Below, one piece after another: positions 101 to 60,300 of a stretch of DNA of 64,000 bases (its first letter is position 1; each line of letters begins with the position of its first letter). The notes beneath the pieces are model-generated. The model saw only the letters and a program-made list of their open reading frames with translations, was not told the origin of the DNA and searched no databases. A program made the position numbers and the translations under genes. Where the stretch lies: NCBI GenBank assembly GCA_000091205.1, contig AP006500.2. The stretch is one strand, 5' to 3'. Source of the stretch: Cyanidioschyzon merolae (taxonomy: Eukaryota).

Positions 101-672
101 ACAAGGTAGACACCGCACCGCTCTGTAGCACCTCTGTATGGGTTTCAGCTCAAGATGAAAGCTCGACGACTCTGCAGGCACCGCGCAACTGCAGGATATC
201 GCTGTACGCTGGCGGTGCTATCGCCCCGGTGATCGCCACCGAGGCGCAGCAGCGGCTACCACCCTTGTTGGGTTATGATCGTCCTACCTAACCAGGACAC
301 TGCGAGTGTGTGATGGGTATCAGCGCCCCTTGAAGCATCTTTCGTGCCGCAGCACAGCATGAAATTCCGCCAAACATCATCAACCAAGCTTGCCTTTTAG
401 GATCATGATTCGTTCGCAAGATTCTCCCTGTGTCGAGCCTAAAGCTCCACTTCGGACACCATATGGAGACAGACTGCCTTGAGCATGTCCATATGAGTGC
501 GTCTGCTTGAGGGCGTCTGTCGTCGCCTGCCCCAGATCGCATCGGCCTTGGCGAGCCATCTGATGAACAGCCAGTTGGATAAGGAAACGTGGCAGCAACA
601 GCAGCAGCGCTCGGGTGCTTTCAACGAAACCGAAAGCGCTTCCTTAACAAGCTGCGAGTCCATATCACCTGA

Positions 673-2879: not shown

Positions 2880-3200
2880 AGCTTCGACACTGAAAGTGCT
2901 GTCATACGGGCTTGTGGATTCTCACAGAACGCCAGGATGCTCGGTCGTCGTTTCCGATTGGCTGCTTTGACCTGCTGCCGCTGGAATTCGATACGTCACT
3001 GGAATGCAGATGATTCGCGACAACCTCGAACTGTTCTTCGTCCAATAAACGATATCATTATTCGATGCAAGTGTACGAGCGTCCGCTCCTCGAATTTCCT
3101 TCCTTGTGGCATGCCCATATCCTGCGTTCTTCATGTGATCGATCTCTCTCTGATTCAACCCATATCATAGGCAGAATACTTCGCAATAATGGATTGATGC
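2880..3200. repeat. Degenerate partial copy of dispersed repeat family R4 (the sequence that forms the inverted-repeat arms at 33.9-37.8 kb)
   Basis: Read by eye, 2985-3100 matches the right-arm segment 36600-36720 (ctggaattcg...gattcgcgac...aaataa..atatc.ttattcgatgca). The antisense ORF 2922-3158 repeats the arm-ORF peptide ...ASNNDI.Y..K...R.SRI...PV..RIPA... Confidence 0.45.
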
Positions 3201-5419
3201 GAAACAACTCGGTTTCGATCCTTGATGACTTGTTCGCAAGCTCATGCCGAATGTTCACTGTACCTACCATCTTAAATATGCGATTTCGTTCCAAATGCAG
3301 ATGCTGCTGTATCTGGAGCCGTTGACGAAACGGGGCTCCACAACGCCAGCATACCTTTCGTGACACACGCCTCCGGTGGATCGTGTTTCTTTTGTTTGCG
3401 TAGATACTGGTCTTGGACTCGAGGTTTCGTCATCGCAACGATTGCTTGCAGTGGACCGTTCGATTTCTCTTTTTCCACAGCTGAGAGCGTAAATGGATCG
3501 AAAGTTCTCGTCTTCTACGTATCTGGATTGTATTTCCGGTACTTGTCCTATCCGGCGCATCATCCTGTTCGGTAAATCCTTTATTGAATGCAGCAGATTT
3601 CGCTTTCGCACATAGCGGACAGCAGACACATAGTGCGGATCACCCAGAAGAAGCCCTTGGTCTAAGGGTACAGCACCGAGCGTGGAAACGGAAAGGAGCA
3701 TCGAGGAGAGTCTTCTGCACCCGACAACGGTATTTACGGAGCGAGGAAGCAAGCGTTCGGGCCTCACGGCGGGCGGCGGCCACAGGAGCAGGATGAGGAG
3801 GTGCTGTTGACGTATACGAAACACACGACCACAATCGACTTTCATTGCTGTGACAGACCCCATCGAGGCTGTATTTAGAGAAGATCAACATGATCTGCGA
3901 GGCTTCGATTGCAACCATTGCTTGTGCATGAAATGTATCGACAAGAGCTGGATGCACTGAGATAGGGACATGAACGCTGCCATCAACATCCTTCGACTGC
4001 TGAGAATGGAACTAGAAGGACAGAGGACAACGGCGTGTTCACAAGTGGAGATAAGCGAGAGGCAAAGGCTGCGATCTGCTGGTGAACATTTACCGAGAGT
4101 TTAGGATCCACGCCCGAATCGCAGGGCCGGCTTCATTTCTACTCTGACATGGGCGTAGACTACATGCCAATAGCGCTGTCCGCTGGGCGTGGCGTGTTGA
4201 ACACCGCTACTCGCGAGCGATGAACAGATTCTCAACGGCAGTTTGCTTCACGTCATAGCAGACCAGCTACACGCACTATGGTTGCTGTTCCTTCAGCAGA
4301 GCAACAAGATTTATAACGAATGCAAACGATGCTTTCGAAAGACCGAGCGGATGCAAGATTCGTCAATCGATGACGATTCTGGTGCGTTATGCCGTCCTCC
4401 ATGGATTCATGGCTTTGGATCTTCTTCACAGCGTGATTTCCTGTCGCAACAGGCGGTCTCCGGAAAACATCATGATCGTCGTGTTCTGGATACACGCCTG
4501 AAACAGGTGCCATTGTCCTCGGGCAAGGCGACTGCGCTGCATGCATTCTCGAGGAAAATGGGTATCTTGCCCGCGTCTACTTCACGAGGAGCCACAACTT
4601 CTCCAATCGGACGCCGTTTATCGATTCCCTGGACGCAAGTTGCAGCGTTCTCACCTCCCCGGATTCGATACGCAGTGCAGCGCGAGACATCAGGTCTACC
4701 AGAGGCATCGTTTGACCCTAACGACCTCTTTCCCAGAGGGCACGCTGTTCGTCGCCGTCTGGTGTGCACTGCGAATTGGCATGCACGGAGTCCGTCAACT
4801 TGCCACGAATATGCCGAATGAGGAAGCCTGAATGAACACTGCCCCAGTGATAGGCTGCATCGTCTCATGGTTGATTCGGAGCAAGCGCCGCACGTGAGTT
4901 TGCTGGAGCACTGCATTCGAAACTTCGTAAACGGATGCGCGCGGCTCTGGTCCTAAGCGGGCTGCCATCGACGCATTCTTCGATGCACAGCGGGGACGCT
5001 TTGCATTCACAAAGCCACGAATGAGCACTCGTTCACGCAGCCAGGTTCCCACTGCACAAAAAGGCGTTCCTGCATCTCTCCGAGACCGCGCCTGTGTTTC
5101 GAGAAGAGTTTCCGAAGAGACTCTCCTTGCTTGTTTTGCTTTCGATGTATCCGTGAATTTAAAGCTGCAGGTTTCCCGCCATGCGCGCACAATTTATCCC
5201 GTGAACAGGTACGAGCATCTCTGTACTTGGTGGACCATCGAAGTATTCACCTAGCTATCCTTTCGGGCGCAAGTTCTTGCCAGCCCACGTTTTTCATGAC
5301 TCATGATCGGTGCGTTCAACCACATGCCCTGGTACGCCAACCTCGATTCCAGGAGATCCTGGATCGAAGCGTCACTATCGTCACACCATCACAGAGAGAA
5401 GCGCTGTGTACCGGCCCTG

Positions 5420-6130
5420 AACAGATTCAAACGCCATGAAGCATTCTGCGTCGAGAGCACAGAAACGAAATGCTACCTAGCAACGAGATCAGAATTTCTT
5501 TCCGTCTCTACGGTTGGCATTGAAAGGGGGAATGGTTTTCCGTATTTTCGAAAGTTTACATTTTTTAGGCAGAAGATCCAGCGAGCTGGACGGGTCTGCC
5601 AGGCCAGTGCTTCATGTGCCTCTGCTGGGACAGGTGCGGTGTCGAGACCTGAGCAACTCGTCCGCAACGCAGTTCTTTCCGGATTTCGGAGCTGGTAGAA
5701 TGTGTCTGGGCGCTGCCCTGATTGCGATAGTCTGCTAGAATATCGCTTCGCGCTGCCGCAGGAATCAGGTCCGGCTGCGCAGATTGCTGGCTCCCAGTAT
5801 GATCATGAATCCCAGTCCTGTGACTAGTGAACCACACCTCGATCCGACGCTCTCTGTTGTATGGTAAATATGCTCTGTCTTCATCTCACATCTGCAACGT
5901 CGCTGCAAGGACTATGGCAGGTGCAGCAAGGCGGGTATGCGGCGCACTATAGAACATACAACACGACCAGTAAATCCGAGATCAAGTCTAGGAAAATAAA
6001 CTTGAAGGTAAGGTGCAACATCACTGACGCTTTCTCGTTTACCATTATCCATCCCGCAAACTGGAATCCCGTATCAACGGAAACGTTTTGTCAAACAAAA
6101 CAATTGAGGTCGTCTTGCCGTCGCTGATTC
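5420..6130 (+). repeat. Partial copy of the Fanzor-unit 5' module (spacer plus R2), no adjacent intact Fanzor ORF
   Basis: 5420-5700 aligns with 26640-26930 (agaaacgag.atg...aatttctttcc..tctacggt.ggc...ttcgaaagtt.ac...gcttcatg). 5700-6130 aligns with R2 at 26930-27350 and with the reverse complement of 57040-57560 (tag.atatcgcttcgcgc.gccgcag...ggtatggtaaa...tagaaca...cccatcccgc...ggaaacg.t.tgtca). Confidence 0.5.
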
Positions 6131-10791: not shown

Positions 10792-10884
10792 GGCCAGTTA
10801 GCGTGCGGTTGGCTGTACTGGAGCAGCGTCCTTTTTCGACAGCGTACTAGTGACACACAAACAGAACTCACTACACCGACACAG

Positions 10885-12130
10885 CGAATGCCTTCCAAGC
10901 GCCAAACGCTGTATAGGCGGTGTTTAGGAGTGGCGAGCGGTGCGCCGCCCGCAACTGACTCTGCGTCTGCCCAACAACGTGCAGACGCCTCCTAGTCTTT
11001 CTAGACCGGCCACCTATGAATGGGTTCAACTTCTTCCGGTATTATTCGACCTTGAGAGGTTCCTTCACAGGGTAAGTTCGCGTCAGCTCTGCGGGTCTCT
11101 TCTGCATCACCGCATATCTCCTTCTATTGATAGCAACGTGAAGGCCTCGATGCACAAACTCCATGCATACATCACCGCTGGTTGAATTCATCAGTGCAAG
11201 GATTCCTCGACGGCGTGCCCTGTGTGCCACTACAGTCTCGGTATCGCCCGTCGGGCAAACATCTTTTCCTGACCATCTCGCCTCTTCTTGTTCCTCGTAT
11301 CACTTGCTCTTCTTCGCGCGAAGAATCGGCGAGGAGTTTTTCCGTTTTTTTTCCGGCAGCCGGCGATGCCAGCTCTCTAGGATCCCCAATTTGCGTATTG
11401 AAATTTTTCCCTTACATTTTTTCTTCTTCGAATGAGCGCACGTCGAACGCATCTGCTATGAACCACGAAAGAGCATTGAATGTCAAACACCAGGAAGTAA
11501 AACACATTCGAGGTGAAAGACGTGAACAGGTTGCATAGAGGGCGCTGGGCGCAACACCCGTGCATGAGTCGCACAACTGTACAATCGTGTATGTTTAGGA
11601 ACTATTATGTTCTACGTGCTAGGCACCGCCGCCGTCGCCAGTGTGCGCATGCCGCAACGCATACAATACCTCCGCGGGGTATGACGCTCTCGAGCAGCGC
11701 AATGCCTATCGTCGGTGCTCGCAGTGGACGCTTTCGACTGAAATGCGGCGCATCCTACGAGGGCCTGAATTCGTTTCCGCATAGGCGTATCGATCCGAGT
11801 CTACAGCGAGTCTAGCTTCTCTTCCAGGAGCGGTAGGTCGCTGGACAATGCACTCTCGACGCTGATCATGCGTGGCTCTGGTGAAAAGGTGTATGCGACC
11901 TGGGAGCCTGCCTCAGAGGGAACGGGCGATGTTCCCACTGAATTTTCTTCATCAGGATGCTGTGGACGCAGAGGAGCACGGTCTGCTTCGCAATGCTTCT
12001 GCTGGGCTCACCAGCACGAGTCACATCTTCGAGAGGGTGCTCAGTGTGCACCAGTGCCGCCCAGCTCAAACAATTGAGTTGCTCGCTATGATTTCACGGG
12101 TTCTGGGGATGTAGCCGGTTGCGGATAGCT
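10885..12130 (-). mobile_element. Internally deleted (non-autonomous) Fanzor-family element with its right end (RE), a C-terminal coding remnant, an N-terminal remnant, and degenerate spacer and R2
   Basis: 10885-11045 matches the conserved 3' non-coding region of copies A and B (gtgcagacgcctcc.agtcttt..gaccggccacc). 11045-11295, minus strand, encodes a remnant ...ETVVAHRARRRGILALMNSTSGDVCMEFVHRGLHVAINRRRYAV... homologous to the copy-A C-terminus, with RuvC-III degraded (RDFNAA to RGLHVA). 11295-11560 matches the N-terminal/NLS region of copy B 57950-58150. 11560-12100 is weaker homology to the spacer and R2. Confidence 0.55.
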
Positions 12131-20559: not shown

Positions 20560-21000
20560 CGAGCGATGCAGGTTATCTCGATTCGTACGACGGTACGAGT
20601 TCTAGCGGCAAGGCGTCGAAGAAGCCTCCCCGAAAATACGACCGAGAATGCTGAAACCACGCATGTATCCGTTCGTCTTTATTGATGTTTTTCGATTCCC
20701 GAAGTTGTCCATTTGAAACCAAGGATTCCTCGAACTCGTACCCTCTCTGTGCCACTACAGTCTCATTGTCGCTCCGTCAGACAAACACATTTTCTCGGCA
20801 ATCTCCTCCCCTCTTCTTCTTCTTTCCCGTCACTTGCTCTTCTTGGCTCGACGGTCGCCCAGAAGAATATTATTTTCGATTTTTCCTGCAGCCGGCCGCA
20901 CAGGGCCTCCAGGATCACTTACTTTTATGTCCATAATTTTCCCTTGGATTTTTTATCTCTTCAATTGAATACATTCTTTAGACCCTTAGGTGAGAACCTT
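20560..21000 (-). mobile_element. Second internally deleted Fanzor-family derivative; same deletion junction as 10885-12130, more degenerate
   Basis: 20740-20990 aligns base-for-base in pattern with 11220-11470 (…aaggattcctcga…ctgtgccactacagtctc…cctcttctt…cacttgctcttctt…ccggc.gccgg…ttttcccttggatttttt…), spanning the junction between the N-terminal and C-terminal regions. The 3' portion at 20560-20700 is a weak match to the RE. Confidence 0.5.
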
Positions 21001-21048
21001 TCCGGGACGAGAAGAACTTGCAGAAGAAAGCCGACATGGGCGTCGGAG

Positions 21049-21420
21049 TCATCGTATGGTGAACGCTTGCGCGATTCGCCCAGTGGAGCGATCATTATGT
21101 TTCACGATAGAAAACATTCGTTCGATGGCATTGTACCACAGAGTGTACGGAGGAATGAAAAGCAGGTCCATGTTGGATCGAACCAGCAAATGCTCGAACG
21201 TAGGGGTAATAGTGAAATACCACGCAGTCCAATAGAAGGACATCGTCAGACGTCAGGGAAAAGTCTTCTAGGACTCGATAAAGTGGGGTTGTTGTGTGAG
21301 CCTTCTCTACGAGAGAAACTTAGGCCGCCAAATAAATCCACTGCAGTTAGAATAGATGATGTCGTCCCTTTTTCGAGTTCGATTGTACGTACATCGTGCT
21401 CCCTGCTCCGCGAGTACACA
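21049..21420 (-). pseudogene. Degenerate Tc1/mariner(IS630)-like DDE transposase fragment
   Basis: Minus-strand ORF 21049-21243 encodes ...FEHLLVRSNMDLLFIPPYTLWYNAIERMFSIVKHN..., resembling the Tc1/mariner C-terminal signature (…H.S…FLE.NNIELL.WPP.SPDLNPIEN.W…K). Another frame upstream reads ...DDIIYSNCSGFIWRPK..., resembling the first D/E block (V.WSDES.F). No intact ORF remains. Confidence 0.35.
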
Positions 21421-24270
21421 TTTCCGCTCCGACCGTTTCGTCCGAAGGAATTCTCATCGACGGGAAAAACAAACCCACGTCCATCTGCTTCATACCGATC
21501 GCTGAGTTCCGGGAACGTTGTTGTACTTGCGATTTCGGTGGAAGATGGATGCACGTGAACTATGACTTTTTTCGCGGCGGTATCCCAGTGTTTTCATAAC
21601 CATACGAGCAAGCTGATACGAATCAGAGACGCACTTGGCGACTGCGATCGACGCATTGTTTTCCTACTAATGACAGCAATGAATCTTTGGGTATATCGGT
21701 TTTTGGCGCGGGGCGCGTACAACTTTTTCTTTCTTTCAGTGCTCGCCAGTCAGCAGAGTACTGTGGTATGACTGATCTGAAGGAGGAATGCAGTCATCCT
21801 TGCACTGTTCAGTAGAGGATATAGATTCAAAAGGCAATTCCCCGACGATCTCTGCTGTACAACGCATAGTGACGTCGATCGCTTGTTCCTCACTGTGGAA
21901 ACAGCATTCAATTCCATGCAGCGAAGATCCTGTACTATTGAGCTGAATGTCCAGAGGTACCGGATGTCGTGCGCCCCAAAAGAGTCAGCGATTCGGACGT
22001 CACCGCCGCCACTGATGACGGCTCATGCCCTCCGGCACAGGCGCAGATCTCGCAGATCTCGGCAGGGACCCCTGCCTGGACGCCCGTGAGAGTGGATCAC
22101 TTGTACCGAGGCGCGCGGTGATAAATTTCCATCATCATCGCTGAGCATGTGCCGGATGAAGATTCATCACGGACGAGTGACTGATACTGCACATCGATCC
22201 TGCGCGAGTATAGTCAGACGATTCTGTACAGAAAGCAGTATATAAATGCTTGCGCGACGCCGCACCGAATGATGCTCGAGTACCTATGTCCACTTCGTAC
22301 ACTTAAATCCGTGTTTTCGGTTGGCGTTCAGGCACAGGCGCGCCGTCTTTCGACGCGCGATCCGTGTCGGGCGGTGGTACTCCAACGTCGCCGAGTCCGG
22401 GAACAGAGGCGGCGCGAATCGAATCGTGCGTTTCGCTATCCCTGTCGCCGAACTAGTACGTATCGCGATCGCAGCCGGACGCATTTTTGTAGATTGTGCC
22501 GTCTACTAGTGGGGCAAGACGCTTCCTTGAACACACCTGCGGCACTGCTACGTTCCAGAAGCTGAACTGATCCTGCTGCTCGGCTAGGATGCAAGCTCGA
22601 GACGGTACCTTCTGGTGCACGCCTATCGTTCCATGCAAAAGATCGGTCAGCATGCAGCGTCCTGGATCAGCGACCTCGGCGGTGGCGGTACAGTTTTCCG
22701 CATGGAGCTAATGTTCAGCACCCGTTCCAGACCAGTCATCCTCTCAATAGCACCTTTCCGTCTCAACCGTTCCTAATGTGAACTCGCTGGCGTTCCAGCA
22801 CTATGCTACAACCGATCATAGCGCTATGCAGCGCCGGGCTGGAGCAATGGAAACGGCAGACGATGAGCGCCTGACTCGCAATCGACTAGTATCCGATAGT
22901 GGTATTGCCCCGCTTATTGGTGTCGCTGCAGTTCTCCGTCGGTGCGTGCGGGCAGGTGGCATCGTCAGAGCATCGTTGAGCCTTGATCGGACCACCCTAT
23001 TCGGATGGTGACACAGGTTTCCGTCTGGAACCAAACAGCATCGCACGCCAAAATCTTAGGTCTGCAGTCCTGTCCAGGCGCTGAAGTACAGTTATCTGAA
23101 TAAGCCAGTCAGTCGGCGCTCATCTTGCGTGGTCGTCTTCCTAAGCGAGTTGGGTTGCGCGATGAGCAGGACTCTGGGCAAACGAACGCTAAACTGGAGT
23201 CCCGGCATTTGTATACATCTGGCTGGCAGCTGCTGAACAACAAATCATCACTAGCTCAGATGATCTATCGTCCACTGTTGGAAAGACTCGTTTATCCAAT
23301 ATCTCGGATATTCGTGCTTCTGCATAGGCGCACAAGTCGCTAGACTCATCGAAGCATCGCTGTGAGAAAAACGTGCTGTGGCCCGCTTCGTTGTCGTGAA
23401 CACAGGTGATCCGCATCCATAGAGGTGCGCACTTCCCGTAAATGCAGACCGCTCGTGAAGCCATTACGGATTCTGTGTCTTGGTCCAGGAGAGGGGAACG
23501 CTTCGCTCTCACGCTCAACATTAGTCAACAGGCTCAGTACAATGCCGTACTAGGCGTCGCTCGCGCGGTTTTCGACTCTCCCGACTGCCAGCCAGAGCGG
23601 CATGACGCCTCGTGTCGTCAGTGGTCATCGATAGCCTACTGCAATGCAACCGTAGCCCTCAAGTCTCGCCTTTCCAAGACACGGAATCCGGTGGTATGCC
23701 CCTTTCCTGCCGCACTCCGCTGGTCGCTCCTGCCTTGCATGTGAGACTGAAACGACGCAAAGATCCACAAAACCCAGACGCCGCAGCCACAAATAACAAC
23801 ATCCCACCTCGTGAAACGATTTCCAGTAGTCCACCCGTTCCAGCACTGAGAAAGGCAGAACATATCCATATTACCTCATGGAGGCCTCCATTTGCGGTTT
23901 GTGCTCTCTAGTACGCTTCGTTGGCATATTCGCTCCTTCTGGGTCCGTTGGTGTGTGCGGAGGTCCCTCTATCCACCTGTCAAGGAGCGTTGATCGTATG
24001 CAAGCGCTTCTCATGGGGCTTTAGCGGTACTCGGGGCAACTCGAATACTCAGCGTGTGCAGGGCGCTGGTCGACGCAGCAACTGCTCCCGTGCCTCACCC
24101 AGACATAGCCATACACGTATGACCAGCTTTAGTCTAGTGCGCTGCAACAGACTTCCGACATTTCGCCCCCAAGCAGCAAGTGGGGCCTTGAGGAGCCCTG
24201 TAAGCGTGTGGTCGCAGCTTCAGTACAGCAGAGGACCATCTCGACTTGCTCTATTTTAGCCACGGGTTCC

Positions 24271-24600: not shown

Positions 24601-24614
24601 ATCGGGTACACGAA

Positions 24615-27350
24615 CGTCTTACAAGATAAACGCTGCTGCGGCCAGAAGTGTACAGTAGTGGCGAGAAACGCGCCCTAGACAAGACCTCTCCAAGTGACGT
24701 GCAGACGCCTCCCAGACTTTTTGGACCGGCCACCAACTACTGATTCCATTTTTTTCTCATATTAGTCCACTTTGAGAGGTTCTCCCACAAAATTCTCTCG
24801 TGTTCAGCTCTGGAGGTCTCGTCTCCAACACCGCACATCTCCTTATATTGACAGCGGCATTAAAGTCTCTGTTCACGAATTCCATACGTTTCTTGCCATC
24901 ATTGGTTGTACTTACTAATGCAAGTATTCCTCGAACTTTCGCTCCCCTTTCCATTCGCTCTACCGTCAGCGCCCCGTACGTTTTCATATCCTCAGGGATC
25001 CGCTGGCACTTTTCCATCTCCACTCTCTGAAGTGTATATCCCAACTCATGGTGTTTATAGAATGTTCGAAACTTATCTTTTGGTATCGTAACGAAACGTC
25101 GTGCCCACTCCTTGTACGTTCTTGTCGTTGGGGCTGGGGTACACCCTTTTTGGGTCACCCAGCGCCCTGCTCCGTACGCTACTACCAGCCTGTGACTCTT
25201 GTCGTCCTCCAAGGCGCTCAACTCATTAAAGAACTTGGCGAATGCACGCTGCTTCCCACTGTATAGATTCATACGCAGACGAGCCCAGCGGGGCTTTGAA
25301 TATTCTTTCCACATCTCCTCGTCATGAGCAGCCTGGGTTTCCATGAATTCCCGAAAGGCTCGAAAAACCGCCCCGCGGTTTGTCACTTTGCTGAACTCCT
25401 CACGGATATCGAACTCCGGGCTGATTTCTTTCAATGGGCCATGAAGGACGCTGGAGTTGATAGTCACAAAATGTGACTTGACGTTGCATAACGGAACGAC
25501 ATTGAAGCGCTTCCCCATTAGGGCAGCCTTCCGTCTCTCCCACTCCTCATTTTCTTCCTCATCCCGCATCATCTCCGCCTTGCGTTTGAGTTCTCGGTCC
25601 AAAAACACGAAATACGGCAGGATGAGGCGAAAGTATCTTTCCTTATATTTTTTCAACTCTGATATCTTTTCTGCTGGATTAGCCAGCCCAAGTACAAGAC
25701 GATCCTCTTGAAAAAGCGCACGGATTACAGAAGCTTCACTCGTATTCTCGTTTGACACTTTCTTGTCGACAAATTCGATCTCATCTTCATGCTGGCCATT
25801 GTTTTTGATACCATTGATAATCGCCCATATTGCTTTGCGAGAGAAGACCGGGTACAGCGCAAACACGGCGCGTATCATGAAACGTTCGAGGTTCATCGTC
25901 GAATGGTTCTTCAGGTTCGTGATGTACTTCATCGCCCCGTATGTGCAAATACGCGAGTCACCCTTGTATCGAGTACCCTCGAGGCTGTAAAACGGACGTT
26001 TTTCGTGAAGAGCGTGAACCCGCTCATTTTCCCTGCGCGTTTCCCCTGTGCCAAACATCAGCTGGCGAGTAGAGGTCTTGTCGAAAAACTCGTCTGGAAT
26101 CTCGACTGTTTCCATGTGCGTCACGTTGCGATACATCTCCCTCGCCAAATGCATCAGTCCTGACGACGCCTTAACAATGCTCTTGGAGCACGAGTCGACA
26201 CGGTTGCGGATGGCGTCTCGCAACTTTTCCTTGTACGAATCCTTCACACGTTTAAGAAGACAGGCTTTCGCCACCATCTCGTCGTACTGTTGCCTTTCGT
26301 ACAGCTTGTTCGTCTTCTCTTGTACCTCTGGACTCTGTACTGATTGTCGTCTTTTTCTGGCAGCTGGCGACACTGCGCCTCCAGGATCCTCTACTTCCTT
26401 TTCTATACGTTTCCTTTTTGTATTTGTTTTTTTTTTCTTGAAAAAGAGCGCATTTTTGAACGCTTCTTCTACAAACCAGCAAAAATAACTTGACCCCAGT
26501 CTGTTGAGGGTTAAAACGCAATCGAACTGAAAACGATGCTTTGCTACGACTACAACGCAAACACATCTTTTTCGGTGGAGCAAAACTCTATATATCAGGA
26601 TCGCGTTTCCCTTCCACAGCGACATTTACGTCGTGCCTCGTGAGTGCCAGTTCTCGAGGTGCGCGTATCGACCGCGCCATGGATAAAAGAATAGAAACGA
26701 GTCATGAAGTAGCAGCTCGATAACAATTTCTTTCCCCTCTACGGTAGGCGTTAGATGGGGAAAGTTTCTAAGCTTTCGAAAGTTCACCTTAGAGGCGGAA
26801 AAGCGCGCGAGCGGGACGAATTTCCCAGTCTCATGCTTCATGCTCCCTCCAGTGCCCAGCGCTGTAGCGAGATATAAGCAGCTTGTCCGAAACGCAGTTT
26901 ATTCTTGGACTCTGAACGGGTAGCCTGCGTCTGGTCGTCGCGCTGGTCCCAGTGGACTCCTAGCGTATCGCTTCGCGCAGCCGCAGCCGGTAGGTCTGTC
27001 CGCGCCGTTTCCAGGTTCCCAGAATGATAACGAATCCCGACCCCGTATCAGATGAACCCTGCCTCGATCCGGCACCCTCTGTGGTATGGTAAAGCCTTTC
27101 TGTCTCCGTGCTGCATCCGTTCCAGCGGTAGAAGCGCCACGGCGAGTGCTCAAAGCAGGTAATCGGCGCATGATAGAACATTCGAAACGACCGGTGCACC
27201 CGAAAGAATACACCAGTAATGGAACTTGGAGGTAGTTGCCTTATGATGGACAATTACATGAATCCTAATACCCGTCCCGCAATCTGGTATCCCTTATCAA
27301 TGAAGACGTTTCTTCATCGAAAAAAGATCAGCGGTACTGCTTCGAGCAGC
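24615..27350 (-). mobile_element. Fanzor/TnpB-like element, copy A: RE, 622-aa ORF, ~380-bp conserved spacer and ~0.45-kb 5' module R2
   Basis: Conserved along its whole length with 57040-60300 in inverted orientation. The 3' non-coding block 24615-24757 matches 60095-60300 and 10885-11045. The spacer 26550-26930 and R2 26930-27350 match the reverse complement of 57040-57940. Confidence 0.6.
24757..26625 (-). CDS. Fanzor/TnpB-like (OrfB_IS605-type RuvC) protein, intact 622-aa ORF, copy A
   Basis: C-terminal RuvC-III signature ...KKRMEFVNRDFNAAVNIRRCAV... (RDxNAAxNI, about 24847-24885). N-terminal lysine-rich NLS-like tract FFKKKKTNTKRKRIEKE. Collinear with the frameshifted paralog at 57950-60095. 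Relative to that paralog it lacks, in frame, the ~130-aa segment carrying the RuvC-I-like strand. The true start is uncertain because the ORF extends ~75 nt past the conserved 5' boundary of the element. Confidence 0.7.
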   Translation of the reverse strand: MSLWKGNAILIYRVLLHRKRCVCVVVVAKHRFQFDCVLTLNRLGSSYFCWFVEEAFKNALFFKKKKTNTKRKRIEKEVEDPGGAVSPAARKRRQSVQSPEVQEKTNKLYERQQYDEMVAKACLLKRVKDSYKEKLRDAIRNRVDSCSKSIVKASSGLMHLAREMYRNVTHMETVEIPDEFFDKTSTRQLMFGTGETRRENERVHALHEKRPFYSLEGTRYKGDSRICTYGAMKYITNLKNHSTMNLERFMIRAVFALYPVFSRKAIWAIINGIKNNGQHEDEIEFVDKKVSNENTSEASVIRALFQEDRLVLGLANPAEKISELKKYKERYFRLILPYFVFLDRELKRKAEMMRDEEENEEWERRKAALMGKRFNVVPLCNVKSHFVTINSSVLHGPLKEISPEFDIREEFSKVTNRGAVFRAFREFMETQAAHDEEMWKEYSKPRWARLRMNLYSGKQRAFAKFFNELSALEDDKSHRLVVAYGAGRWVTQKGCTPAPTTRTYKEWARRFVTIPKDKFRTFYKHHELGYTLQRVEMEKCQRIPEDMKTYGALTVERMERGAKVRGILALVSTTNDGKKRMEFVNRDFNAAVNIRRCAVLETRPPELNTREFCGRTSQSGLI

Positions 27351-29348
27351 AGTGCACGGCGGCGGCGCCGCCGAATGCCTGCGATGCACTCGGATATCTT
27401 GCTCAGGACGATAGCCTGGCCTCAAGACAGAACAGGAAAACAGTGCACTAGACAGTGCTGTTTTGTTTTGTGCTGTGTTTTGGACGAGCCCCTCAGGGAA
27501 CAGCGAGGGAGTTGCCCGCACGCCATGGGTAGTCCGCAGCTGGGGCACGCCTGCGCACCACACCAGGGCCTTCATAAGGGAACTCGGCAGCGAACCACGG
27601 AAAAGAGGCACATTGCTCCTGCCCAATTAGGACAGTTTGACACTGAGAGCGAGGTCGCTTTCTCGGGATATGGTAATGCTGCAGTGGTCAACCGTGGAAC
27701 CCACCCGCGAAGTTTTTCAGCGCGTACCAGCTTCGTCTGGTTTACTGAGCCCTGTGCTTTGACCAAAGTGCACGGCAAACACCCGTGCATAGGCATCCAG
27801 GAGAGTTCCTTCAGCGCTCCTGTTCTCTATCCGATCCATGGAGCTTCACGGATTCTTGTTCAGAGGCATTCCCCGCATCCGGTAAAGCGTGCGCTCCCGC
27901 GCTCGCGCTCTCGCTCCTGGAAAGCCTCGCTGTTCGAGCGTTTCTTCGGCCGGAAACGGTCATCGCGCCAAACTTGGCCCCACTTGATCAAAGAACAAGC
28001 ACCAACGGGGACAGTACCAGCTTCAGGTGCCTCATTCGCACAGAATGGAGCGGACACCACAGTTATTCCGCGAGCACGCGCTCGACATTCCCGTCACGAA
28101 CCGACAAGGGTAGCGTCGCCGACTCCCAGTAGTCGTGACATCACAGATGTTGACCGAAGCAACGCGGAAACTTGCATCGCGATACGCCATGTACACAAGG
28201 TTTTTCCCGACTCACATGCACCAGGAGGACAATTTTACGCCCTTTGTGATATTTTGCTCGATATCGAGGACGGCTCGCTAGTGGCTTTGGTTGGCCCCAG
28301 CGGTAGCGGCAAGTCGACACTGCTTCGTTGTATTGCGGGGCTTGAGAATCCGACCTCGGGGCGTATCTTCCTCCATGGGCGAGATACCGAGGAGATGAGT
28401 GTTCAGGAACGACGGATTGGCTTTGTATTCCAGCATTATGCATTGTGGAAGCACATGACCGTGTGGAAGAACATTGCATTTGGATTGGAGATTCGCAAGA
28501 CGCCTCGCTCAGAAATAGAACGGCGCGTCTTGGAGCTTCTGAAGCTCATGGGTCTTGAGGGACTCGGTGACCGCTACCCACATCAACTGAGCGGCGGACA
28601 GCGCCAACGGGTTGCGCTGGCTCGAGCCCTAGCTCCCGAACCGCGCGTCCTCCTCCTCGATGAGCCGTTTGGTGCGTTGGATACGCGAGTGCGGCGGAGT
28701 CTGCGTGCATGGCTTCGGCGCTTGCACGATGAGGTCGGCACAACGACGATCTTCGTGACGCATGATCAACAGGAGGCTTTAGAGATAGCCAGCTCCGTGG
28801 TGGTCATGAACAAGGGCCAGATCGAGCAGGTCGGCACACCGCTTGAGATCTATGAGCATCCAGCGTCGCCGTTTGTCATGAGCTTCATGGGCGATGTGAG
28901 CGTCGTGAGTCGTGATGCGCTCCCCGCAGAGCAGGCAAACGGGCGCACCTTCACGAATGCTACTCGAGCGCGCTCCGTGGAGACATCCAAAAAAGACTCC
29001 ATTTGGTCGGACCCCGAGCGTCCGCCGACAATACCGCGCGAGTCTGAGACAACGACCAATGTCCGTAAGAGCGATAACGCCGCCCAGTACTTGATGCTGC
29101 GTCCTCATGACGTTCACTTGCATCGCAGCCCCGATAGCACCACGGCTCCGGCTCGTGTTGTCGACGTGTTTTTCTTAGGTTGGAGTGTGCGTGTTGATGT
29201 CGAGCTCCAAGACGGCCAAATTCTTCAATCCATCATGCTCACAACGCGCTACAAAGAGCTGGGCGATTTGTATCCCGGCGACCTCGTGCATGTTAAGTTC
29301 TTCGGGGAACGCTCCTTCGAGGTGGACGAGGCCGAGTATAACATCTGA
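27219..29348 (+). CDS. CysA-type sulfate/thiosulfate ABC transporter ATP-binding protein with long N-terminal extension
   Basis: C-terminal ~400 aa: Walker [11 protein letters not shown]-loop, signature [15 protein letters not shown], Walker [13 protein letters not shown]-loop FVTHDQQEA, CysA/ModC-like C-terminal regulatory domain (...[13 protein letters not shown]...). The first ~330 aa are low-complexity. The first ~40 aa are encoded inside repeat R2, so the N-terminus may be over-extended. Confidence 0.75.
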
Positions 29349-49560: not shown

Positions 49561-51169
49561 GTCTCTTGGAACGTCAAGTCATCCGGAGGGACTAGTTGAT
49601 CTGGTTTCGTGCTTGCTGGCTGTGCGGGCATATGCAGGAGGCCGCAATTGATGCATCAACCCCACAGCATGAGAAAAACACTCCTGGATGCAACAGCGGA
49701 AGTGACCATTCTTACTCGTAGGCAAGCGCGCAGAGATGTCGTTCAGGGATTTCGGATCGTCGACGCTGACTGCGAATCCCCGATGAAGCGATTGATATCC
49801 GCGTCCATCATTGCGCATCGCACTGTGAGGCGTCACCAATCACCACCTTTGCTTCTCTTCACGTATACTAGTCCGCCAGTTCGTGTGATGCTGTGTGGTG
49901 CCGACTGCCTACCCTGAGCGCCGACGAGGACGTACACGGTGCCGCAGCGGATGCTGCACGGAGGCAAAGCGGCTTCGCCATACCCGTGAGAACGTCGGCT
50001 CTAAATGTGGTTTATTTGACGCGTCGTCAGGTATCTCCCTCATGTCGTGCCCTGACAGTCACTGTATGCGGACCTGACTTTACATCAAGATGCGTTGCAG
50101 AAAAGAAGCTGTCAGGAGGAATCCTGAAAACCCCGAGTCTTCGCTTCCCTGTATTGGGAGGCATGCAATGCGGTCTTGCGACTCGGGGGCCATTGCGCTG
50201 CACTCAGCAGCCAGGAGATGCACGAAACGCCGGGCGCGCATGTTCATGCAGTTCGCGGCTCTTTTTCGCCTAGAAAGACGAATAAGAGTTTGGTGCCAGA
50301 TAGCGCGCATTTTGGTCCAACCAGTGGGCCTCCAATTGTCAGTTCTGCACCCAAAATAAGCGAACGCTCATGAGCATCTATAGTGACATCCACGAGGTGT
50401 GATTGCTCGAACAGCCAGCTTCGTTCCTGTGTCCGAACGCGAACACTGCAAAAGCGAGTCTCGCCGAGCATTGGGAGTTACGTCTCCCCTGCAGAAGCAG
50501 TATGATTCCCTGCGAGCATGTAATTTTTCGATGCAACACAAGGCCCGGACGTGCTAGACTTCACCGATTCGCTCTTTAGCGAGCCAGACGGTTCCCATGG
50601 GAACCTCTGACCACCCCAATGACTCCCGCCAAACGTTTCATGTCTCTACTCGGTGGTTCTTCTAATGGGATGCGAGGCCAACGTTGAAGATCCTGTTCTT
50701 TCGAAATCGGCATTTGCATTCTTTGCCTTGAACCGTTCGTTAGAGATGTCGAGAAAAGAGTCAGTCCCAGAAACCAACTGGTATATATCCACTCCAAAGC
50801 CATACTTGAGGAAAATCTGCCTCCACTAGACCCAAACGCTTTTTCGATACCTTGGGATGCACGCCATCATCCGGTTGAGCCGGGGGCGCGTGCTGGGCCT
50901 CTTGGCCCTTGTACGACGCGCTGCAGTCTGCTGCAATGACTTCCAACGGGGGTGTATAGGATTTACATCCGAGAGCTTCCGTGCTGGGTGCTCTGCCGAG
51001 CATCCCGACACGATTCGCATCGACCTGTTGACTGGGGTCTGCATTCGCGAAGCGAGTGCGAGGCTCATGCCCCACCATTCGACGCCCCAGGTGACCGCCT
51101 TGATGATGCACATCCTAATTGACCCGATGCAGACTCCCAGCGACATCCCTATGGGTCCGATAAGAACCT

Positions 51170-57039: not shown

Positions 57040-60000
57040 AGCTACTATCCTGCATCGGAACGAAGGACGCTCACCCGCGGTAGTGTCGCGCTTCTGATCC
57101 GCGCAGGCGCGTAAGCCGGCAGGAGTCGTTGCTGCATCGAGTTTTTTTCGATGACAGAGCGTTTCCATTGACCATGAATCCCCAATAGCGGGATGGGTAC
57201 TACGATTCATGTAATTCTCCATCATGACGCAACCTATCTCCAAGTTCCATTACCCATATTTCCTCTCAGGTATACTGGTCTTTTCCTTTGTTCTATCGTA
57301 TGCCAAGTGCCTGCAGTGAGCACCCACCGCAGCGCCTAAACCGCTTGTGCGGATGCTACACGGAGACAGAGTAGCTTTGTCATACCACTGAGGGCGTCGG
57401 CTCGAGGAATGCTACACCTGACACGGGATCAGGGCTACTTATCATTCTGGGAGTCTGGAAGCTGCGCAGGCAGGCGTACTGCCTGCGGCAGCGCAGAGCG
57501 ATATTCTTCGAGGACACCACGACCAGCGCGACGCCCAGACGCAGCATACCGCTCTGAGTCCCAGAATAAACTGCATTGCGGACGAGTTGCTCAGATCTCT
57601 CTGCATGACCAGGCTCCGAGAGGTCTATGAAGCACGAGCCTGGGAGAATCGTCCGACTCGCGGGACATTCCGCCCAGAAGGTAAACTTTCGTCAATATGG
57701 AAATCTTTGCTCCCCATGAATTTTTATCATTGACAGGGAAGGCAATTGTTATCTCGCTGCCAGTCAGTAGTGAGTCTCTGCTCTTCGTTCTATAGAGTAC
57801 AGTCGATAGGCGCACCCAGGAGATCTGCCAGGCACGAGGTACGACGTGGATATCGCCATTGAAGAGAAACGCGATCCTGATCATTAGCATGTTGTATACC
57901 GTACAAGGTGTATTTGCGTTGAAGTCGTAGCAACGTTTAGTCTTCAGTTCAGTTGTGTTCCAACCCCAAAGCAAGTATATACGAGCGATTTTTCGTGGTT
58001 TATAGCAGAAGCGTTCAAAGTGTGTTCTTTTTCGAAAATAAAAAAGGAAAGTTCTGGACGAAGAAGTGGAGGATCCTGGAGGCACGGTGTCGCCAGGTGG
58101 CGAAAAGAACGAAAAATAGTGCCGAGCAAAGATGAACAGGAGAAGAAGAAGAAGAAGCGAGAGCCAGACCTCAACGGCTGCAAGAAAGGCGACAGCATGA
58201 CGAGATGATAGTGAACGCCTGCCTTCTTGGATGTATCAAGGATCCGTACGAGCAGAAGATGCGAGAGACCACCAGAAGCCGTGTCGATTCCTACTCCAGG
58301 AGCGTGCGTAACACTTCTTTTTGGACTGAAGCATACGGTGAAGGAGATATACGATGACCTTACCGACACGAAAACAGTCGAGGTTCCGGAAGCGTTTTTT
58401 TTAACAAGACCCTCAGCCGCCACTTGATGCTTGGCACAGGGGGACGTCGAGGGAAAATGAGCGCATGTGCGTCCTCCATGAAAAATACCCCTACTAGGGT
58501 CTCAAAGGTACTCGTTACAGGGGTGACTCGCGTATTTTCGAATACAGGGCAAAAAAGTATCTCACGAACCTGAACAACCATATGATCATGAAGCTCGAAC
58601 GTTTCATGACACGCTCCATCGTTGCGCGCTACCCGGGCCTCTCTCGCAAAGGGATACGGGCCATCATCAATGGCGTCAGGAACGATAGTAAGAATGAACA
58701 GGAGATCGAATTCCTCGACGAGAAGACATCACACAGGAGAACGAATGAAGCTTCTGCAATCCGTACGGCAATTCAAGAGCACCGTCCGGTCTCGGAGCTG
58801 GTCAATCCAGCAGGAAATGTATCAGGTATGGAAAAAGAAAAGCAAAGATGTTATCCCCTAATCCTGCGCTATTTCGTGTGTTTGGACCGCGAACTCGATC
58901 CCAAGGCCAATATGGAGCTGGGTGTGGAACAAAATGTAGAGTCAGAGAAACGGAAGGGTATCCTAACGGGTAAGCGCTTTAGCGTTGTTGCGTTATGCAT
59001 CACCAAGTTCCATTTTGTAACAATCGACTCCAGAGTCCTCAACGGCATCATGAAGGAGGTCTGTCTGGAGTTCGATGTAAGGAAGATAGAGTTCACCAGT
59101 GAAAACCGGGAGACGTACTGGAAGAATATCTTCAATTTCAAACGTCTCAATACGTGCAAGCAAAAGGTATTCACTGGCATCATCGAAACCGATGGAGTAG
59201 CCATGTGTGTACACTCTCGGCGCTTGAAGGCAGATCGTCCAGTTCCGTCCTCGACTGCGCCCGTGGCGAAGCATGAAGAAAACAAGGAGGCTGGCCTTAC
59301 AACGCAGGAGGTACAGGAGAACGATTTTGTTGTTGGCACGGACCCTGGGAACACGAATATCGTAACCATCGCAGTACCCAAGCGTGCGGAAGATGATATC
59401 GACGGCAACTTACGTCAGAAGGACATCCGTCTTTGAAAGCTCACGACAGCTACATCTTACCGAGAATCAGGAAAACTGAATGCAAGGAAAAGAAATGAGA
59501 CGTGGAATGCAGGAGTGAAAGAGCACAAGGCAGCGATCAGCCAGGTGACGAGCCGAGGAGCGGACTTTGAAGCTTTTCGAGAGTTCATGAAAGTCCGCGC
59601 TGCTCTTGACGAGCCGCTGTCGAAAGAATCTACAAAGCCCCGGTGGGCTCGTCTGCTTAGAATCTTGTACTTTGGGAAGCAGCACGCATTTGCCAACTTC
59701 TTCAATGAGTTGAGCGCTCTCAAAGAGGACAAAATTCAGAGACTCGTGGTGGTATACGGAGCAGGGCATTGGATGACACGGAAAGGTAGCACACCAGCTC
59801 CATCGACACGAGCGTATAAGGAGTGCACACTGTGCTTCGTCATGATGTCGATAGATGGGTTCCGAACGTCGTATACATCCACCATGAGCTAGGGTGTGTA
59901 CTTGAGAGTGTCGAGATGGAAAAGTGCCAGCAGAGCACTGAGGATGTAGCAAACTACGGAGCGCTGACAGAGCACCTAACGGCATGGAGGGTGCGAGTTC

Positions 60001-60300
60001 GAGGTCTACTTCCGTTGGTGAGTACAACCAATGCCAAGAAACATATGAAATTCGTGAACCGAGACTTCAATGCCGCCAACAGTATAAGCAGATAGGCGGT
60101 GCTGGAGAAGAGGCCCCCAGAGTTGACCAGAGCCAACTTTCTGGGGCAACCTCTGCAGATGGCGCTGTACGAGAAGAAGCTGAAGCCAGTAGTAAATGGC
60201 CGGTCCAAAAACCCTGGGAGAATTCTGCACGCTGGCGTATATACATCAACGCTATCGGCTTGATGTGTGTGCGTTCGTTTGCTCGTTTTGCTGGCGGGAT
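57040..60300 (+). mobile_element. Fanzor/TnpB-like element, copy B: R2, spacer, full-length but disrupted ORF and RE
   Basis: 57040-57560 is R2 in reverse complement relative to 26930-27350. 57560-57940 is the spacer, the reverse complement of 26550-26930. 57950-60095 is coding. 60095-60300 is the conserved 3' block (…ccagag.tga.c…aacctct…cagtag…tggccggtccaaaaa.cctgggag…tctgcac…). Confidence 0.6.
57950..60095 (+). pseudogene. Fanzor/TnpB-like gene, copy B; retains RuvC-I-like and RuvC-III motifs; disrupted by stop and frameshifts
   Basis: Frame pieces 58582-59436, 59437-59892 and 59823-60095. RuvC-I-like ...[19 protein letters not shown]... at 59333-59356. In-frame TGA at 59434-59436. Frameshift near 59870. 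RuvC-III ...KKHMKFVNRDFNAANSI.... The N-terminal NLS-like region 57950-58210 (…QEKKKKKRE…) is itself split across two frames. About 60% amino-acid identity to copy A over alignable parts, estimated by eye. Confidence 0.65.

Follow-up and report, generated by a model that had tools for sequence, protein, structure and literature searches.

Copies A and B and their common junction

The window, by which we mean the whole 64,000-nt stretch of DNA analysed, holds two short copies (A and B) and two long copies (C and D) of a transposable element that carries a Fanzor1 gene (Table 1). Positions within the element refer to a family profile ('model') of 3261 positions built from four long copies. Copy A lies on the minus strand, from approximately 11524 to 10881, and is a type-1 short copy; such copies are ~0.55-0.65 kb long and have no ORF. 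Homologues of its left-end (LE) module form the 5′ end of the transposase-type elements described below and model positions ~795-870 of full-length copies, and the leader and N-terminal part that follows aligns locally with 26535-26266 in C and 57991-58162 in D. Beyond the junction, the decayed RuvC-III coding remnant of A reads ..MEFVHRGLHVAINRRR.. and is 50% identical in a tblastn comparison to residues 692-747 of P0002, an intact Fanzor1 of 752 aa. An earlier note on this DNA had described, at two loci, an N-terminal/NLS region joined to the RuvC-III region and right end; this holds for A, which reaches ~10881 (noted start, 10885), but not for B, where homology stops at 20716.

The second locus had been placed at 20560-21000. 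It proved to be the 3′ portion of a ~1.24-kb element on the minus strand, of which the upstream ~1 kb is a decayed DDE_3 transposase gene (longest ORF, 64 aa) and the Fanzor part runs from 20993 to 20716. The earlier interval hence missed ~1 kb upstream (20993-21962) and took in 20560-20716, where a profile built without B detected no element homology. With that profile, homology ended ~60 nt past the junction, and so B has neither the RuvC-III remnant nor the right end. From 20994 to 20720, B is 82.6% identical to the type-2 consensus. The string ggaggatcc, previously quoted for these loci, is present in neither, A having ggggatcc and B gtgatcc.

Table 1. Features of the element family in the window, and copies of a second deletion subfamily in metagenome loci (L numbers).
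Feature	Coordinates	Strand	Evidence or remarks
A: left-end (LE) module, ~75 nt	11450..11524	-	Start = CACGTCTTTCACCTCG; 5′ boundary common to all type-1 short copies
A: Fanzor1 upstream leader and N-terminal basic (NLS-like) remnant, model ~870-1037	11282..11449	-	nhmmer against family profile, E=1.5e-22
A: junction zone, breakpoint somewhere in ~60 nt	11221..11281	-	Between two profile segments; flat breakpoint scan; 13/13 short copies collinear
A: Fanzor1 C-terminal remnant (decayed RuvC-III) and conserved 3′ non-coding region, model 3012-3259	10976..11220	-	nhmmer E=6.5e-42
A: 3′ tail of full-length type (tail-F), terminal hairpin decayed	10881..10975	-	A-C alignment reaches A 10881 / C 24608; tail alignment
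B: LE module (start ~21952), then decayed DDE_3 (Tc1/mariner-IS630 superfamily) transposase gene with several stop codons	20993..21962	-	
B: Fanzor1 leader and N-terminal (NLS-like) remnant, model ~887-1035	20812..20992	-	nhmmer E=4.9e-13
B: junction zone and first ~50 nt of 3′ segment (GAGACTGTAGTGGCAC..TCGAGGAATCCTTG), then truncated	20716..20811	-	Profile built without B ends at 20716
C: long CMe-1A-type copy: TE-N2-like 5′ module, Fanzor1 gene and tail-F	24608..27325	-	622-aa ORF 24757-26625
D: ~3.1-kb (3.09-3.14) copy, full architecture, tail-S-like tail	57143..60283	+	ORF in three frames; RuvC-I GTDPGNTNI kept
Solo TE-N2-like module (model 10-654)	5454..6099	-	nhmmer E=2.3e-89; partial copies 49748-50277 (+) and 284-513 (+)
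Type-3 copies, second deletion subfamily, different loci	L021:5829-7182, L077:15451-16826, L078:6731-8149		

Read on the minus strand, A (11435..11197) and B (20968..20720) align across the junction with 70.4% identity over 250 nt (E from 1e-21 to 1e-23) and zero indels, over essentially the interval for which collinearity had been claimed. A covers model positions 810-1037 and 3012-3259, and the 5′ segment of B stops at 1035, indicating that the same ~1.95 kb was lost at both loci. With the same profile breakpoints and unrelated flanks, the two are separate loci that share one junction, in agreement with the earlier note. The junction fuses the Fanzor1 N-terminal/NLS leader to the last ~55 codons of the gene, near which (~59956 in D, ~24990 in C) the 3′ part of both copies begins. 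On a rough estimate, the chance that two separate deletions of a ~2.4-kb gene would coincide at both ends to within a few tens of bases is <1e-3.

All switch points between the 5′ and 3′ parental consensus sequences were scored, and the optimum was flat, every switch point across ~60 nt lying within 4 units of the best. The single best is the GAGATGG site at which a microhomology had been proposed (the junction string gaggcgagatgg given for it is 11284-11273 in A), and a second local optimum falls between GTAGTGG and CAC. Because similar short motifs (GAGATGG; TGACG.AG) occur in both parental regions, the breakpoint is not uniquely placed; microhomology at the junction is therefore plausible and coincides with the best-scoring breakpoint, but not in a unique position. 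The short forms also have motifs specific to them, AAGAAGAGCAAGTGA and GAGACTGTAGTGGCAC, and derived motifs such as the latter are absent from every full-length copy.

The Fanzor1 parent and the DDE_3 module

Alone, the 622-aa ORF of C had no match in Pfam or PDB, and five homologues of it had none in Pfam. Almost all of its 74 homologues come from JGI metagenomes, and a profile made from an alignment of 16 homologues matched the solved Fanzor1 structures from Parasitella (9cf0, E=1.5e-14) and Guillardia (9cer, E=0.009). The parent is therefore a Fanzor1 element, which bears out the Fanzor parentage first suggested for A and B. Pfam files relatives of the ORF under DUF8286. RuvC-I DPG, RuvC-II DEFRTS and RuvC-III NRDxNAAxNI are conserved across the family alignment; between RuvC-II and RuvC-III, where the C4 zinc finger of the Bao & Jurka motif was looked for, the aligned segment (TSYTHHELGCTLQRVEMEKCQR...) has no CxxC pairs, and the zinc finger of this Fanzor1 clade is degenerate.

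The ORF of C is uninterrupted and lacks ~430-600 nt encoding the RuvC-I GxDPG motif, which D has (compare 59108-59537, +). It is thus an in-frame variant without a catalytic motif, and a 562-aa protein 95% identical to it (P0001, with 18 member sequences) is found in metagenomes. Elsewhere in the Fanzor1 ORF, a 75-78-nt unit in the acidic/lysine-rich linker (model 2120-2197) is tandemly repeated in variable number (L007:11221-11373, L006:10540-10617). At the other end of C, a 709-aa ORF for a CysA-like ABC ATPase (27219-29348, +) starts inside the 5′ end of the copy, the overlap being 27219-27325; the true start codon of the gene probably lies further downstream, with transposon C abutting its upstream region.

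Host proteins of the window have exact matches on JGI, ENA and Logan metagenome contigs, and the flanking WD40 gene has a nearest orthologue 71% identical in protein sequence, with 50% identity for Cyanidium caldarium. We therefore take the host to be a cyanidiophyte red alga of environmental origin. Matched on published description, the parent belongs to CMe-1A, a Fanzor1 family known from Cyanidioschyzon-like red algae. In C. merolae, CMe-1A is ~3 kb long and has ~150 copies that are ~80% identical to the consensus, no TIRs and TSDs that could not be determined; another element, TE-N2_CMe, exists separately and is identical to the 635 bp at the 5′ end of CMe-1A (Bao & Jurka, 2013; PMC3627910). 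Likewise, the element described here is a ~3-kb Fanzor1 element of a cyanidiophyte host, with old copies, few intact ORFs, no TIRs and a separable 5′ portion of ~635-650 bp that also occurs solo. Set against CMe-1A by description, it differs from the family as published (PMC3627910) in the deletion subfamily with a shared junction, in the link to DDE_3 and in its host, an environmental relative.

Model positions 1-655, corresponding to the TE-N2-like module, are found on their own at three places in the window and at many in the metagenome loci; solo modules of ~650 bp were seen in L020, L022, L031, L032, L042, L057 and L077. The module is also present directly 5′ of the Fanzor element's own start (model ~650-680), in either orientation and sometimes doubled. 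This suggests repeated insertion at or beside one site rather than a fixed composite element.

B shares ~950-1000 nt of upstream sequence with five other copies, at 68-72% identity. The frame-stitched consensus of this module matched Pfam DDE_3 (PF13358; E=2.3e-21, 76.6 bits for a cutoff of 28.6), with a weak match to HTH_Tnp_Tc3_2; the DDE_3 domain is that of transposases in the IS630/Tc1-mariner superfamily. In all, 11 places carry the module (B and 10 others, at 68-72% identity), and L045 has it immediately 5′ of a complete Fanzor gene. Each of the 10 modules sampled is broken, the longest ORF being 164 aa, and no intact DDE_3 gene was seen among the copies in the window and the loci. DDE_3 is the sole transposase linked to the family here, and the description of these elements as IS605-like is accordingly not supported; no TnpA came to light among the sequences inspected.

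Short copies, their tree and their ends

We used the profile to scan 80 metagenome loci (1.03 Mb) around Fanzor relatives, which represent several related strains or species and not one genome. In a short form, model positions ~800-900 to ~1030 are succeeded, after 20-120 nt, by positions ~2980-3012 to ~3255; redundant loci were recognised by their flanks (L031=L032; L003-5=A). The scan yielded 11 further non-redundant copies with the same architecture, for a total of 13 with A and B. The multiple alignment that the earlier note had suggested as a check for differing breakpoints has all 13 collinear through the junction, three of them with small secondary deletions. Flanks are unrelated among the short copies, including those of A and B, for which segmental duplication had been raised as the alternative. 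L054 and L032 each have two short copies per contig.

Copies of type 1, such as A, consist of the ~75-nt LE module, the leader, the deleted Fanzor gene and a tail, and those of type 2, such as B, of LE, the DDE_3 gene, the deleted Fanzor gene and a tail. In type 3, the DDE_3 module is joined directly to model 2907-3257 at another junction, common to three copies. Full forms exist with or without the DDE_3 gene, and the LE module is common to type-1, type-2 and full-length copies.

In a neighbour-joining tree of two shared segments (412 columns, 60 non-redundant copies, 200 bootstrap replicates), the short forms constitute one clade with 86% bootstrap support, except for L024, which groups with full-length copies. 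Types 1 and 2 are intermixed, and were separately monophyletic in none of the 200 replicates. L045, which is full-length and transposase-linked, groups with other full-length copies. The clade may be inflated by long-branch attraction, given that short forms are free of coding constraint and that the short-short distance (0.33) is barely below the short-full one (0.37). Nevertheless, a single deletion event is favoured by the one clade, the intermixed types, the placement of L045 and the shared derived motifs; and with 13 non-redundant copies sharing the junction, the proposal that a deleted progenitor was copied is upheld.

Most full-length copies run ~100 nt past the profile end in a tail, tail-F, that ends just after the hairpin CGTCGTTCGA-CTT-TCGAACGGCG. 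At this end (24608-24695, -; alignment columns 150-205), the 9-10-bp hairpin is followed by GCGTT and has two sequence versions, CGTTCGA..TCGAACG and CGTTTTT..TGAAAG. It resembles the hairpin-adjacent ends of Helitron or IS200/IS605-type elements, and its covariation is not significant. A second tail of ~55 nt, tail-S, is unrelated to tail-F; the majority of short forms have it, as do every type-3 copy and some of the full-length ones (D, L014). Tail-S ends in ...GACATTTTTCGTTTCACTGA (D 60232-60283, +; L014:4378-4440; short forms in L030, L032, L041, L054, L058, L078 and L081), and the LE module holds a similar ATGCTTTTTCG motif in direct orientation. A and L024 are short forms with tail-F. 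The distribution of 5′ modules and tails across lineages indicates that these parts were shuffled among lineages. Since L024 lies among full-length copies and both it and A carry tail-F, family members must have exchanged modules or recombined, and descent along one strict lineage is too simple a picture.

Searches for TIRs gave no 5′/3′ inverted match above chance matches of 6-12 nt, and no TSDs, TA signature or target motif were found flanking 12 copies, decay limiting the power of both. The empty-site search proposed earlier for defining termini and a target motif gave none among the metagenome loci, and no element was detectable in the WD40/fructosamine-kinase intergenic region of the nearest relative (71% protein identity), which is of no use for termini because it is unalignable outside coding sequence.

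Conservation is high in the ~160-nt 3′ non-coding region, which is also self-complementary: in a hand-specified structure 82% of cells were paired, compared to 30-62% when partners were slid. Covariation in the region was not above that of shuffles (0.100 vs 0.096), RNAalifold predicted no structure for it, and it had no match in Rfam. A role as guide RNA (omega/fRNA) or DNA hairpin is possible.

Age, origin and relation to known elements

Short copies differ by 16-25% from the consensus of their own subfamily (K2P 0.18-0.30) and by ~33% among themselves, the divergence from consensus being 0.235 for A and 0.16 (over 125 sites) for B. The short-form consensus is 22% from that of the full-length copies, which themselves average 13% from consensus in the segments compared. 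Only three of 46 full-length copies keep a Fanzor ORF of ≥650 aa; in the window, C is without the RuvC-I segment and D is frameshifted. The family is ancient and decayed, presumably now inactive, and hence an ordinary transposon fossil in the genome of a hot-spring red alga, not a sign of recent activity. The recent activity that had been read from the shared junction is not supported, given the divergence of the short copies, the scarcity of long Fanzor ORFs and the broken state of all sampled transposase modules.

Probably, then, A and B are decayed members of an old, multi-copy, internally deleted subfamily of a Fanzor1-carrying DNA transposon, with CMe-1A as the parent. One ~1.95-kb deletion would have taken out almost the whole Fanzor1 gene and brought its last ~55 codons, with the 3′ non-coding end, directly behind the upstream leader and N-terminal basic region, and this deleted progenitor would then have been copied to many loci. 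It exists in two architectures, types 1 and 2, with the LE module and junction in common; B is a type-2 copy truncated later on its 3′ side, and A a type-1 copy without the transposase gene. The existence of the LE-DDE_3-complete Fanzor1 arrangement in L045 implies that the copies form a deletion series. With no TIRs, TSDs or empty sites, we infer transposition from copy number and discrete ends. The family's DDE_3 transposase may have been the mobilising enzyme, acting in cis on type 2 as long as its gene was intact and in trans on type 1; we put this forward tentatively, as slightly short of an even chance, because neither TIRs nor TSDs are visible. Trans-mobilisation of A-type copies is plausible.

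A microhomology-mediated hotspot could also have led to the independent loss of the same ~1.95 kb in different full-length lineages, in which case a shared junction would be no proof of common descent. Such recurrence would fit with the similar short motifs in both parental regions and a breakpoint unfixed within ~60 nt, with the differing 5′ architectures of types 1 and 2 and 3′ tail of A and L024, and with the grouping of L024 among full-length copies. All 13 copies nonetheless have the same sequence across the entire ambiguous zone, down to derived motifs that full-length copies do not have, the short forms are monophyletic without either type ever being so separately, and L045 does not group with type 2; we therefore regard recurrent deletion as quite unlikely. 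The spread of a single deleted form by means other than transposition, that is, by segmental duplication, templated double-strand-break repair or gene conversion between pre-existing copies, is unlikely. It would account for the failure to find TSDs or TIRs and for the missing right end of B, elements are clustered in TE-rich patches, and the mixed 5′ modules and 3′ tails imply that members of the family recombined with one another. Yet the copies cease to match at the same discrete LE and tail boundaries, beyond which each locus has unrelated flanks. They occupy 13 or more independent loci, and in segmental duplicates of such age the flanks would still be ~70% identical, just as the elements are.

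The version in the earlier note, in which recently active MITE-like elements are trans-mobilised by an IS605-like (TnpA-type, TSD-less, motif-targeted) mechanism, draws on the shared junction and multiple copies and could also appeal to the hairpin beside the 3′ terminus of full-length copies, of which A has a decayed form. We consider it extremely improbable: copies 16-25% from their consensus are not recent, DDE_3 is the one transposase linked to the family, covariation in the hairpin is not beyond controls, no conserved target motif lies beside the ends, and Fanzor1 elements are known to ride on eukaryotic transposons, not on IS605 (PMC3627910, PMC10530073). Another reading takes the short forms to be guide-only satellites that borrow the Fanzor1 protein of full-length copies for RNA-guided homing or retention, as they keep just the two parts that such a locus would require, the leader/promoter and the conserved structured 3′ region, the site of TnpB/Fanzor guide RNAs. 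Though very unlikely, it would, if true, make them a eukaryotic counterpart of non-autonomous omega-RNA-only elements, with a spread driven by the nuclease and not by DDE_3.

As deleted derivatives of a Fanzor1 transposon, the short copies fit a known general picture. In the CRe-1/2/3 Fanzor1 families of Chlamydomonas reinhardtii, copies are often 5′-truncated and internally deleted with intact 3′ ends, much like A (PMC3627910); these families differ in having Helitron2 ends and being young (~98% identical to consensus), whereas here the ends are unclassified, there is a DDE_3 link and copies are very old. L045 and the type-2 copies are similar to Mariner/Tc1 transposons with Fanzor1 in combining a DDE-type transposase and Fanzor1 in one element in the same orientation (PMC3627910; Jiang et al., 2023, PMC10530073), but, unlike in those carriers, TIRs and the TA duplication are undetectable and every transposase copy is a pseudogene. 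MITE-like, the earlier term, is apt for A and other type-1 copies insofar as these are short, non-coding and multi-copy, arose by internal deletion and have discrete shared ends. It fails on the lack of TIRs and TSDs, on a modest-looking copy number, and on B, whose 1.24-kb element is not miniature, includes a transposase pseudogene and has no right end. For C. merolae, no MITEs were recorded in the P-MITE survey.

It was already known that Fanzor1 occurs on Mariner/Tc1 and other eukaryotic transposons and that Chlamydomonas has internally deleted copies (PMC3627910, PMC10530073). New here for the CMe-1A lineage are the amplified deletion subfamily and the DDE_3 link, the latter a concrete connection to a Tc1/mariner-superfamily transposase for a family whose transposon class was previously unknown. 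This old Fanzor1 family, from extremophilic red algae, is modular, made up of the LE module, an optional DDE_3 gene, the Fanzor1 gene and one of two 3′ tails, and spawned at least two amplified deletion subfamilies. There is no indication of current transposon or nuclease activity in the genome, and the findings raise no new mechanistic question by themselves; the aligned set of copies is usable for reconstructing consensus elements.

Members of the family are found in clusters, in L032 (8512-10704), L054 (8045-14956), L078 (6731-11989) and the window (20.7-27.3 kb). In L032, a type-1 and a type-2 short form lie head-to-head ~170 nt apart, in L054 two type-2 copies are 5.4 kb apart, and in the window B and C are separated by <3 kb. 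This clustering suggests TE-tolerant islands or a local insertion preference.
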